Positions 30,982 through 35,643 of a stretch of DNA of 64,000 bases are shown here, piece after piece. Origin of the DNA: Escherichia coli O127:H6 str. E2348/69 (GTDB lineage: Bacteria; Pseudomonadota; Gammaproteobacteria; Enterobacterales; Enterobacteriaceae); assembly GCF_000026545.1 (NCBI RefSeq), contig NC_011601.1; one strand, written 5' to 3'. The translations under genes and the position numbers were made by a program. Under the pieces are notes generated by a model. The model ran no database searches, was not told where the DNA came from, and saw only the letters and a list, made by a program, of their open reading frames with translations. Every line of letters begins with the position of its first letter. Within the stretch, counting starts at the first letter, position 1.

Positions 30982-31079
30982 TATAAAACCTCTTAGCCTG
31001 AATTAAATATGTAGGTAACCGTAACCGACACCTGCAAAACAGACAGGTGGATTATTTATGTTTAAATTAAAACAAATAA

Positions 31080-32018
31080 CTAATCAACTTCAATTAATTG
31101 CCTTCGTCTACACCCATTATAAGATGAATACTCTTTGGCTAATTCCACCAAAACCGATGCTGCTTTTTTAATACGATAATTTTTCGACCATACCGCGGCA
31201 TATTGTGCCACAGGTAATGTTTCTTCAACCGGAATAGTAATAAATTGATTAGAACCAAAAGGTGATGTCATATCACAAGGAATTACAGTTAAGAAATCAG
31301 CATTGAGAACAAGATTATAAATTGTCACGACTGAGTCGGTTTTAACGATGTTTTCAATACTGATGCCATTTCTTTGTAACGTAGTAAGTAGTTCGCTGTA
31401 GTACCCCATATTGGTTTGTGGCAACACCCACTGTTCGTTCTTCAACGACTCCAGCGTGGTGGTGCCGGTGCATGTTCGGGACTTACTGGCTACCAGCACA
31501 AACTCGGACTCGAACAGCGGCTCAACATGTAAATCCTGAAGCTTCATTTCTGCGCTTAACGTACCAATCGCAAAATCCAGTCGACCGTCGCGGATTGCCG
31601 GTAAGAACGAAGACAGTTGCGCTTCATACATAGAAACCTGCGCTTTCGGGAACACCTCTTTGAACTTGTTGATCATCCCTGACATAAAAGTAAAACCAAT
31701 CAATGAAGGAAAACCAAATGAGACTTCCACCACCGCCTCAGAAGACATACCGCTTATCTCATTAACCATATTTTTCATTTCACGGGTAATGGATTCGGAA
31801 CGGGAGAGTAACAATTGACCGGCAGGTGTTAATGTTACACCGGTATTTTTCCGCACCACTAACTCCACCCCAAAATAATCTTCAATATCGTTAATGATTT
31901 TACTGACGGCCGGTTGAGTTAACCCTAACTCTTTTGCAGCCGAGCCGATAGAACCACTTCTAATAACTTCCTGAAAGACTACCAGGTGCTGCGTTTTCGG
32001 AAGAAGAATAGTGCTCAT
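31080..32018 (-). CDS. tdcA: LysR-family activator of the tdc operon
   Basis: 312-aa ORF with N-terminal HTH. Confidence 0.95.
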   Translation of the reverse strand: MSTILLPKTQHLVVFQEVIRSGSIGSAAKELGLTQPAVSKIINDIEDYFGVELVVRKNTGVTLTPAGQLLLSRSESITREMKNMVNEISGMSSEAVVEVSFGFPSLIGFTFMSGMINKFKEVFPKAQVSMYEAQLSSFLPAIRDGRLDFAIGTLSAEMKLQDLHVEPLFESEFVLVASKSRTCTGTTTLESLKNEQWVLPQTNMGYYSELLTTLQRNGISIENIVKTDSVVTIYNLVLNADFLTVIPCDMTSPFGSNQFITIPVEETLPVAQYAAVWSKNYRIKKAASVLVELAKEYSSYNGCRRRQLIEVD

Positions 32019-32082
32019 AACGACCTACGTTAATTACCTCATTGACGGCATGAAGTGTATCAAAATGAAATGAACAGGATAT

Positions 32083-32098
32083 GTGCGACCACTCACAA
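32083..32098. promoter_or_regulatory. Candidate CRP site in the tdc promoter region
   Basis: tgtgcgaccactcaca resembles TGTGA-N6-TCACA; lies 65-80 bp upstream of the tdcA start. Confidence 0.4.
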
Positions 32099-32332
32099 AT
32101 TAACTTTCAATACTTTCCATGGCATCGTCACCACAATTAAATACCTTTAAGTATCAACAAGTTAAAGTATGAAAATCAGCATAAACCCTGATTTTTGTCA
32201 AAAAAAATGACGGGGATAACCATATTTTATGGCGATAACATCATTCGTTATGTGGTTAATACAAAAAAGGGGCTGAGACTATATTTCAAGCAATTACCGG
32301 ATAATTACCAGGCAAAATTTGAGTTAAATTTA

Positions 32333-32551
32333 ATGAGTAAGTTCTCAAATTTTATTATAAACAAACCATTTTCAGCGATAAATAATGCGGCACGTCACAT
32401 TTTTTCACGCTATTTGTTGGAGAACAAACATTTATTTTATCAATATCTTAAAATTTCGAATACAGGTATTGATCATCTCGAACAATTGATTAACGTCAAC
32501 CTTTTCTCTTCTGACAGAATGTCATTTTGTGAATGCAATCGTTTTCCATAA
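32333..32551 (+). CDS. tdcR: Small regulator TdcR
   Basis: ORF 32195..32551; internal start MSKFSNFIINKPF gives 72 aa; divergent from tdcA. Confidence 0.75.
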   Translation: MSKFSNFIINKPFSAINNAARHIFSRYLLENKHLFYQYLKISNTGIDHLEQLINVNLFSSDRMSFCECNRFP

Positions 32552-33074
32552 ATTCTTCTCCCCTCATAGGCAACGAATAGCATTTTGTGTTGAGGATCAC
32601 AAAACGAATAATTGCTGGTCGCCGCGATAAGGTCAGACGAAGTCAACAAGGAGGATTTTCGCTGTGCTTTACATCAGCGTAGGCCATAGAATGTTGCTTC
32701 GTTGACTGTAATGCCGGGTAAATGAGCATTTTTTGATAGTGCGAAAGAACCCTGCGAGGAAAATAAGCATCTATTATTGTTTGTCATGATGACAAGGCAG
32801 GCATCAATGAAAGGCTTCTCAATTGCACATATTTTTCACTCTTCAATGCACGCAGTGGTTAACAATCACAATAGAAATATTGATTATTGGACGGTAAAAA
32901 TTTAGGTTATAACGCCCAAATGATTCAACGATCGGACAATACCTGCGAACTTACAATTAATGAGAGAAATATATGTATAATTACGACCTTTTAAATGCAA
33001 TATAGACTTAATAACTTCTTACAAAGTCTGTTATTAATACCGTAGATATTCATCTTACCCTGGGCACCAAAAGC

Positions 33075-33098
33075 AAAAACCCGCCGAAGCGGGTTTTT
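33075..33098 (-). terminator. Rho-independent terminator of rnpB
   Basis: On the minus strand: aaaaacccgcttcggcgggttttt, directly 3' of rnpB. Confidence 0.8.
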
Positions 33099-33107
33099 AC
33101 GTAAATC

Positions 33108-33484
<377 letters not shown>

Positions 33485-33516
33485 GGCGCGCAGTATAGAG
33501 GGTTTGCGCGCCCTTG

Positions 33517-34662
33517 TCACCCCGCGTTGCGCATTCCAATCGCCAGTGTCGCGGCGATATTACGTGAAGCACGGCAGATATTGTCATAAGCTCCGCGGAG
33601 TGCTTCGTCTAACGTACCAATGCTGGTCAGTACGCTGAAGACCGCATCAATGCCATGCTGATGTACAACGCCAACATCATTGGTCAGGCTACCCGCAATG
33701 CCAATCACCGGTTTATGGTACTTCTTCGCCACGTTTGCGACACCAATCGGTACCTTGCCGTGAATACTCTGGCTATCAATACGCCCTTCACCAGTGATCA
33801 CCAGCGTACAATCGTGAATATGTTCCTCCAGATTCAGCGCCGTAGTGACGATTTCAATACCACTTTTCAGTTCTGCACCAAGAAACGCCATCAGCGCCGC
33901 GCCCATACCGCCCGCAGCTCCTGCGCCGGGGACATCTTTCACATCAACATGCAGCGCTTTTTTAATGACATCGGCATAGTGAGAGAGGTTATTATCCAGC
34001 TCGACAATCATCGCCTCACAGGCTCCCTTTTGTGGGCCAAAGATGCGCGAAGCACCACTGTCGCCGACTAATGGGTTGGTGACATCACAAGCGACGCGGA
34101 TGACACAATCTTTTAAGCGCGGATCGAGACCGGAAATATCAATATCATTCAGAGTATTAAGACTACCGCCGCCAAAACCAATTTCATTGCCGTTGGCATC
34201 GCATAATTTCGCCCCCAGCGCCTGTACCATGCCTGCGCCGCCGTCGTTGGTGGCGCTGCCGCCAATGCCGATAATAATGTTTGTCGCACCGCTCTCCAGC
34301 GCCTGCAGGATTAACTCACCAGTACCGCGTGAAGTGGTCACGAGTGGATCGCGTTTTTTCGCAGGTACCAGTTCCAGCCCACTGGCCGCCGCCATTTCGA
34401 TAAACGCGGTTTTGCCATCGCCGGAGATCCCCCAACTGGCATTCACTTTCTCGCCCAGCGGCCCTGTAACCCAGGCGTGACGTTCAGCCCCCTGGGTGGC
34501 TGCAATCATCGCTTCCACCGTTCCTTCACCACCGTCGGCAACCGGAACAGAAACATACTGTGCATCAGGAAAAATTTCCCGAAATCCTTTTTCTATCGCC
34601 TGCGCAACCTCGCTGGCAGATAAACTTTCTTTATAAGAGTCTGGGGCGATTACGATTTTCAT
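33517..34662 (-). CDS. garK: Glycerate 2-kinase
   Basis: ORF 33517..34743; start MKIVIAPDSYKESL gives 381 aa. Confidence 0.9.
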   Translation of the reverse strand: MKIVIAPDSYKESLSASEVAQAIEKGFREIFPDAQYVSVPVADGGEGTVEAMIAATQGAERHAWVTGPLGEKVNASWGISGDGKTAFIEMAAASGLELVPAKKRDPLVTTSRGTGELILQALESGATNIIIGIGGSATNDGGAGMVQALGAKLCDANGNEIGFGGGSLNTLNDIDISGLDPRLKDCVIRVACDVTNPLVGDSGASRIFGPQKGACEAMIVELDNNLSHYADVIKKALHVDVKDVPGAGAAGGMGAALMAFLGAELKSGIEIVTTALNLEEHIHDCTLVITGEGRIDSQSIHGKVPIGVANVAKKYHKPVIGIAGSLTNDVGVVHQHGIDAVFSVLTSIGTLDEALRGAYDNICRASRNIAATLAIGMRNAG

Positions 34663-34758
34663 ACCTATGCCTGTTACCACATGACGCCGGAGGGCGTTTC
34701 TCTTATTCGGCCTGGATTCCAGGCCCGGATTGCAATACGCCATCCGGGCACGACGTCA

Positions 34759-35643
34759 TTAGCGAGTAACTTCGACTTTCGCCAGTTTTTCGTAGTAGCA
34801 CGCCAGGGCGCTATGATCCGCCGTTCCTAAACCATCTGCACGCAGTGCCTGCATCATCTCCATAACCGCAGCTGTGAGCGGCAGTTGCGCGCCGACGCCG
34901 TGAGAAGTATCCAGCGCATTCGCCAGATCCTTAATATGCAGATCAATACGGAAGCCCGGTTTGAAGTTGCGGTCCATCACCATCGGCGCTTTGGCATCCA
35001 GCACGGTACTGCCCGCCAGCCCACCGCGAATTGCCTGATACACCAGATCCGGGTTAACGCCCGCTTTGGTTGCCAACGTTAACGCTTCTGACATCGCAGC
35101 AATATTCAGCGCCACAATGACCTGATTTGCCAGTTTGGTGACGTTACCTGCACCGATTTCCCCGGTATGCACCACGGAACCCGCCATCGCTTTCATCAAA
35201 TCATAGTATTTGTCGAAAATAGCCTTGTCGCCGCCCACCATCACTGACAGCGTACCGTCGATGGCTTTCGGTTCACCGCCGCTCACCGGGGCGTCCAGCA
35301 TATCAATGCCTTTCGCTTTCAGCGCTTCGCTGATTTCACGGCTTGCCAGCGGTGCGATAGAACTCATATCAATCAATACCGTACCTGGCTTCGCGCCTTC
35401 AATAATGCCATTCTCACCCAGCGCCACCTCTTTCACATGAGGGGAGTTTGGCAGCATGGTTATGATGACGTCGCACTGTTCAGCGATCGCTTTAGCCGTA
35501 GAGGCTGTTTCTGCACCTGCAGCAATCACGTCAGCGATAGCTTCTGGGTTACGGTCAGCAACCACCAGCGAGTAACCTGCTTTCAAAAGGTTTTTACTCA
35601 TTGGTTTACCCATAATCCCAAGGCCAATAAAACCAACTTTCAT
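34759..35643 (-). CDS. garR: Tartronate semialdehyde reductase
   Basis: ORF 34759..35658; start MKVGFIGLGIMG gives 294 aa; NAD-binding GxGxxG. Confidence 0.9.
   Translation of the reverse strand: MKVGFIGLGIMGKPMSKNLLKAGYSLVVADRNPEAIADVIAAGAETASTAKAIAEQCDVIITMLPNSPHVKEVALGENGIIEGAKPGTVLIDMSSIAPLASREISEALKAKGIDMLDAPVSGGEPKAIDGTLSVMVGGDKAIFDKYYDLMKAMAGSVVHTGEIGAGNVTKLANQVIVALNIAAMSEALTLATKAGVNPDLVYQAIRGGLAGSTVLDAKAPMVMDRNFKPGFRIDLHIKDLANALDTSHGVGAQLPLTAAVMEMMQALRADGLGTADHSALACYYEKLAKVEVTR

Follow-up and report, generated by a model that had tools for sequence, protein, structure and literature searches.

The window analysed here is a 64,000-nucleotide stretch of the chromosome of Escherichia coli O127:H6 str. 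E2348/69 (NC_011601.1), in which positions 32552–33107 make up exactly the 556-bp gap between tdcR, which ends at 32551, and rnpB, which occupies 33108–33484. Positions 32100–33500 match the E2348/69 chromosome record NZ_CP059840.2 at 100%, and the window coordinates of PGAP features were taken from that identical record, in which garK, tdcA (31080–32018, minus strand), tdcR and rnpB are all annotated. The left boundary gene, tdcR (32333–32551, plus strand; PGAP CDS), encodes a 72-aa product scoring 175.5 bits against the NCBIfam model NF008507 (cutoff 100). The ORF list gives a tdcR-containing ORF of 118 aa that opens at a TTG at 32195 (32195–32551); the form used by PGAP and by the NCBIfam model is the 72-aa one starting at the ATG at 32333. 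On the right, the class A RNase P RNA gene rnpB (33108–33484, minus strand) is annotated by PGAP and recognized by Rfam RF00010 (319.7 bits, E 4.5e-105). As a first-pass annotation of this DNA had described, the spacer is AT-rich (38.3% GC vs. 51.7% for the whole window) and lacks any ORF as long as 60 aa (the largest that overlap it have 58, 54 and 42 aa); the window has no IS element. The same annotation had stated, correctly, that K-12 carries yhaB and yhaC at this position: the tdcR–rnpB gap of MG1655 is 2617 bp long and holds both genes (540 and 1188 bp, respectively).

Pairwise blastn of the spacer against the MG1655 locus (L002, in the coordinates used below) resolves it into four blocks colinear with MG1655. 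The first (window 32552–32900, L002 3953–4310; 92% identity) spans the intergenic region and the start of yhaB, the second (window 32901–32963, L002 5038–5100; 94% identity, or 93.7%) lies inside yhaC, the third (window 32962–33096, L002 5913–6051; 90% identity, or 89.9%) comprises the end of yhaC and the sequence downstream of it, and the fourth (window from 33067, L002 from 6529; 99.6–100% identity) carries the rnpB terminator and rnpB itself. The first-pass annotation had named a like spacer in MG1655 as a finding that would refute its reading; over the initial 349 bp, at 92% identity, MG1655 does show it. The ends of the blastn segments and the junction contexts place one deletion junction at 32900|32901, where L002 4310 is joined to 5038, and another at 32962–32963, where L002 5100 is joined to 5913. 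At the former, 727 bp are gone, from yhaB codon 35 through yhaC codon 90, without microhomology; at the latter, 812 bp of yhaC are gone and the flanks share a 2-bp GA overlap. Some 1.54 kb of yhaB and yhaC coding sequence is thereby missing through two deletions, and the complete set of absences relative to K-12 (727 + 812 + ~511 + 9 bp) explains the difference between 2617 and 556 bp.

The ~511-bp component of this difference traces to 113-bp tandem repeats that lie downstream of rnpB and of which the window has one copy. In K-12, TRF detects an array of 3.5 copies of a 113-bp unit at L002 6200–6592, each unit carrying the rnpB terminator and the rnpB 3' end; in the window, TRF detects no tandem array, and the one window copy matches four K-12 copies by blastn. 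That copy belongs to the 102-bp remnant of the yhaC–rnpB intergenic region (33006–33107), the window interval corresponding to the array being 33006–33160. The window differs from the K-12 arrangement in copy number (1 vs. 3.5) and resembles it in retaining the terminator-bearing unit right after rnpB. A terminator scan identifies the intrinsic terminator of rnpB on the minus strand (33073–33100) as a 12-pair hairpin with a downstream run of T: the stem, running from 33100 to 33073 directly 3' of the gene and containing a perfect 10-nt inverted repeat at 33075–33098, is followed by TTTTGGTG. Between the stop of yhaC and rnpB lie 613 bp in MG1655, 500 bp in 2014C-4135, 390 bp in MRSN346355 and 102 bp in the window, with array copy number varying among strains. 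These repeats are said to have been described, by Reed and colleagues in Cell in 1982, together with the sequence of the M1 RNA gene.

Coding remnants of both missing genes can be recognized in the spacer. The 5' end of yhaB persists as a stub of an ATG and 31 codons (32807–32905, plus strand), detected by BLASTP and overlapping a partial pseudogene called by PGAP at 32807–32899. Its ATG lies 256 bp past the tdcR stop in the window and in MG1655 alike, in syntenic position, and its translation, MKGFSIAHIFHSSMHAVVNNHNRNIDYWTVKI, ends at a stop that arises at the deletion junction. The stub is identical to YhaB residues 1–34 at 29 of 34 positions, with a three-codon gap (E 1e-18), and no intact yhaB (~179 aa) is present, the ORF stopping after 32 codons at that junction. 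The three-codon gap corresponds to a 9-bp in-frame deletion at 32846–32847 of E2348/69, where K-12 reads CAATCCCGC with flanking CAAT direct repeats, and looks like the product of replication slippage. Strain S88 does not have it and its yhaB stub is 102 bp long; the 9-bp deletion is therefore later than the main deletions. The interior of yhaC is represented by a 63-bp fragment (32901–32963, plus strand; PGAP partial pseudogene at 32902–32964) found by both blastn and BLASTP, whose translation, LGYNAQMIQRSDNTCELTINE, is identical to YhaC residues 91–111 at 20 of 21 positions. The 3' end of yhaC follows at 32964–33005 on the plus strand, within the blastn match to L002 5913–6051, and in frame translation it yields a C-terminus ending in YNYDLLNAI before the stop, vs. 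YDYDLLNAI in K-12. No intact yhaC (~395 aa) exists in the window, where 63 bp and ~44 bp are left in different frames.

The counterparts of these fragments in MG1655, yhaB and yhaC (b3120/b3121), occupy the same position between tdcR and rnpB behind the same 255-bp upstream intergenic region, and MG1655 YhaC scores 887 bits on its NCBIfam family, NF007262. The window fragments share 85–95% amino acid identity with MG1655 YhaB 1–34, YhaC 91–111 and the YhaC C-terminus but, unlike in MG1655, neither gene can make its protein. As to what the lost genes might do, searches of Pfam and NCBIfam yielded sub-threshold matches only. MG1655 YhaB (L002 4208–4747) matches a Bud32 kinase/ATPase model far below threshold (E 0.0044, 16.5 bits, cutoff 125), and MG1655 YhaC weakly matches a pentapeptide-repeat model (E 0.054). 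PGAP marks two partial "hypothetical protein" pseudogenes on the plus strand at this locus in E2348/69, and likewise in S88; the lineage-specific scar of gene decay is hence already reflected in the RefSeq annotation and is, to that extent, known.

Taken together, the colinear blocks and coding fragments point to the spacer being, with a probability of about 90%, a decayed remnant of the yhaB–yhaC locus. An ancestor of this lineage would have carried yhaB and yhaC beside tdcR, and two internal deletions, of 727 and 812 bp relative to MG1655, would have taken most of both genes, so that yhaB survives as a 32-codon stub and yhaC as a 63-bp island plus its final codons. Homology, junctions, genome distribution and motif series are all directly observed, and from parsimony we infer the direction of change, deletion rather than insertion. 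The first-pass annotation had suggested that a gene was either lost or never acquired here; because fragments of both genes persist, in order, in the spacer, the first of these alternatives stands and the second does not.

The distribution of the short form was assessed across 5426 complete E. coli genomes, where a query spanning both junctions was covered over at least 80% of its length in 1061. The first junction alone was found in 1061 of the 5426 and the second in 1062, so that essentially no genome in these junction-specific searches carries just one of the two deletions. The near-equal counts imply either that both deletions precede the spread of the lineage or that they stem from one complex event. 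Named carriers of the short form include E2348/69, NU14, S88, Nissle 1917 and an O25b:H4-ST131 strain. NU14 and ST131 we take to belong to phylogroup B2. The remaining named carriers, E2348/69, S88 and Nissle 1917, are B2 strains as well (PMC9720028). In K-12, BL21 and O157:H7, O55:H7 and O111 strains, the matches comprise yhaB, in some of them together with yhaC, or a K-12-type version of the variable intergenic patch described below. The same locus has been lost differently in EC9952, where an IS1A element (L007 3605–4302) stands in place of yhaB–yhaC between tdcR and rnpB; mechanism and breakpoints differ from those of the short form, and the IS1A copy stays behind. EC9952 is thus an independent loss of yhaB–yhaC through IS1, and yhaB–yhaC are therefore dispensable.

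That the short spacer might instead be ancestral, the pair never having been acquired in this lineage and having been gained by insertion in K-12-type strains, would agree with the AT-richness of the two genes (35.6% GC for yhaB, 31.8% for yhaC) and with their classification as a homogeneous young two-gene operon of unknown function (PMC12218254). It would also agree with a scan of YhaC against 100,044 species representatives (GTDB r220, one genome per species), a search sensitive to close relatives only, which returned no record named as another Escherichia species. The only two loci recovered in it (L008 and L009) come from MAGs assigned to Bacteroides sp. and Collinsella sp.; in all likelihood these are E. 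coli-like contigs binned in error, and the result fits a narrow and young distribution while saying little beyond that. The L009 YhaC is 87% identical to that of K-12, indicating that a divergent allele exists. Against an ancestral short spacer, however, the short form holds three separate, ordered, in-frame pieces of yhaB and yhaC coding sequence, would have to have been converted into the long one by two separate insertions that exactly completed two ORFs, and is limited to ~20% of genomes. The coding fragments effectively refute acquisition by insertion, the probability of which we regard as close to nil.

Upstream of the yhaB stub, the decayed locus retains the complete tdcR–yhaB intergenic region (32552–32806, plus strand), which is colinear with L002 3953–4207 and is recovered in a multi-strain alignment. 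The region is 255 bp long in the window, in MG1655 and in other strains that keep yhaB–yhaC, with a GC content of 43.1% in both the window and MG1655. Alignments show a hypervariable patch at 32640–32712, differing from K-12 at ~15 of 100 positions vs. ~2% in the flanks; the clustering of substitutions in this patch is real, and the haplotypes observed in it across strains are mosaic. With a 100-bp query (32620–32719) over 5391 genomes, 289 genomes, including Nissle 1917, fall at 99% identity or above, 768 at 95–99% (the S88 type), 182 at 90–95% (the L725 type) and 4152 at 80–90% (the K-12 type). No second copy of the patch that could have served as a template was found in the window. A search of 32300–33200 for repeats, inverted ones included, turned up just the terminator of rnpB along with short matches attributable to chance. 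Comparison by eye with the K-12 reverse complement gave nothing convincing for a small inversion or a quasi-palindrome correction.

Two elements of this intergenic region are weak candidates for a terminator of tdcR or for a binding site. The first is a palindrome, CATTTTGTG-N8-CACAAAACG, at 32581–32606, 30 bp past the tdcR stop. The second, at ~32710–32740 on the plus strand, is a hairpin with a T run (AATGCCG GGTAAA TGAGCATT TTTTGA), possibly a weak terminator of tdcR. A half-site related to the palindrome, TCATTTTGTGA, lies at 32522–32532, inside the end of tdcR. It may be asked whether the 255-bp region has been kept for a cis action on tdcR, as a 3' untranslated region with a terminator or through a protein-binding palindrome, in which case the spacer would not be pure junk. 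The palindrome is invariant in seven of seven strains, the flanks outside the variable patch are nearly invariant, the 255-bp length is kept in short and long forms alike, and the downstream hairpin preserves pairing as one stem pair passes from C-G (K-12) to U-A (E2348/69 and S88) by way of a U-G intermediate (MRSN346355). This is, however, the only compensatory pair in six sequences, neither hairpin passes as a plus-strand terminator in a consensus scan, and recent common ancestry may account for the conservation. Folding also speaks against a cis-acting structure: the single-sequence fold of the 255-bp region (z = -0.62) is not better than shuffled sequence and the covariation term of a six-strain alifold is positive (+1.28), so that neither result is evidence for a structured RNA. 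Conservation for a cis role is accordingly rated as unlikely, though it deserves some weight.

Other searches for signals in the region returned little. Promoter-like sites are at background (6 vs. 3.9 ± 2.0), and an Rfam search of 31000–35000 in E-value mode reports rnpB alone, with no family reaching its gathering score in the spacer; two sub-threshold Rfam matches, at 26.7 and 20.4 bits, coincide in part with the terminator of rnpB. The only parts of the decayed spacer that are likely active are those that belong to its neighbours, namely the rnpB terminator and, possibly, the tdcR 3' untranslated region.

The variable patch also contains the element that the first-pass annotation had singled out, a strong Shine-Dalgarno (SD) match followed by a short reading frame, in which it saw a possible vestigial gene start. 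The SD-like AAGGAGGA is indeed present at 32648–32655 (plus strand), and translation confirms a 13-codon ORF, VLYISVGHRMLLR, at 32664–32705 (plus strand). The GTG start lies at 32664–32666 and not at 32663, where the frame would open with TGT, and it opens a frame of 13 codons that ends in a TGA at 32703–32705; the spacing between AAGGAGGA and the GTG is 8 nt. The interpretation as a vestige does not hold. The motif and the GTG lie 152 and 143 bp, respectively, upstream of the true yhaB ATG at 32807, within an intergenic region that has equal length where yhaB–yhaC are intact, so that the motif never served as the start of yhaB. Furthermore, K-12-type sequences read AAGGGAAA at the motif columns, with no SD, and GAG for GTG; the state seen here is therefore derived and specific to a lineage, and not the remnant of an ancestral start. 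The actual vestige of a gene start at this locus is the stub of yhaB at 32807, which the annotation had left unnoticed.

The strain alignments provide a graded series for this derivation. MG1655 reads AAGGGAAA (GGGAAA), MRSN346355 AAGGGGAA (GGGGAA), L725 and S88 AAGGGGGA (GGGGGA) and E2348/69 AAGGAGGA (GGAGGA), while GAG replaces GTG in MG1655, 2014C-4135, MRSN346355 and EC9952; over the corresponding columns, MG1655 and 2014C-4135 read AAGGGAAATTTTCACAGAGC and the window AAGGAGGATTTTCGCTGTGC. L725 combines GGGGGA and a downstream GTG with intact yhaB–yhaC, which shows that the patch haplotype can occur apart from the deletion. The perfect SD is confined to the E2348/69–Nissle-like haplotype, in at most 289 of 5391 genomes (the ≥99% patch class), and on this series it is a recent single-base change that only some members of the short-form lineage carry. 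In the relatives aligned, neither the start codon nor the SD nor the reading frame is conserved, and the stop of the small ORF is TGA in E2348/69 and S88, vs. TTA followed by TAA two codons on in K-12 and L725. Chance occurrence accommodates the motif as well: AAGGAGGA is found twice in the window vs. 0.96 expected, with 23 of 100 shuffles reaching two, and AGGAGG followed by a start codon at 4–10 nt occurs twice vs. 5.3 expected. The pair of motif and GTG thus very probably arose incidentally, through point substitutions in a non-coding patch that evolves fast.

As far as its sequence goes, AAGGAGGA followed by 8 nt and a GTG would be able to support initiation were the region transcribed, which raises the alternative that the pair marks a newly born, translated 13-codon ORF, arisen by stepwise mutation in the tdcR 3' region of a B2 sublineage. 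The series from GGGAAA through GGGGAA and GGGGGA to GGAGGA, together with the change from GAG to GTG, does approach a better initiation site, ending in a perfect SD at 8 nt from the start. The terminator scan also found no convincing tdcR terminator on the plus strand upstream of the motif, and since no strong one separates it from the tdcR stop, read-through from tdcR would be plausible. Yet the 4152 genomes that share the 80–90% class with MG1655 lack the start codon, the perfect SD is restricted as described, motif and start occur together no more often than chance predicts, the stop position varies among strains, and a frame of 13 codons shows no detectable homology or conservation signal. 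The resemblance to SD-led small ORFs, such as those of bacterial small proteins or leader peptides, consists of the AAGGAGGA motif, the 8-nt spacer, the GTG start and the short frame; the window ORF differs from them in showing neither species-wide conservation of start and SD nor enrichment over chance, and in having no downstream gene to regulate. A translated newborn ORF is hence rated as very improbable and, by the comparisons above, we infer that the 13-codon frame is most likely not a gene and has no function.

The decay of this locus is of little wider consequence. Strains such as E2348/69, Nissle 1917, S88 and ST131 lack functional yhaB–yhaC owing to a common pair of deletions, a shared loss that shows both genes, of unknown function, to be dispensable, and the deletion pair could serve as a simple lineage marker. 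If the 13-codon ORF were nevertheless translated, it would be an example, polymorphic within the species, of an ORF born de novo next to a gene pair in decay. On the reading favoured here, an isolated perfect Shine-Dalgarno match appears to be a poor sign of a gene relic, the motif at this locus being younger than the gene loss with which it had been associated.
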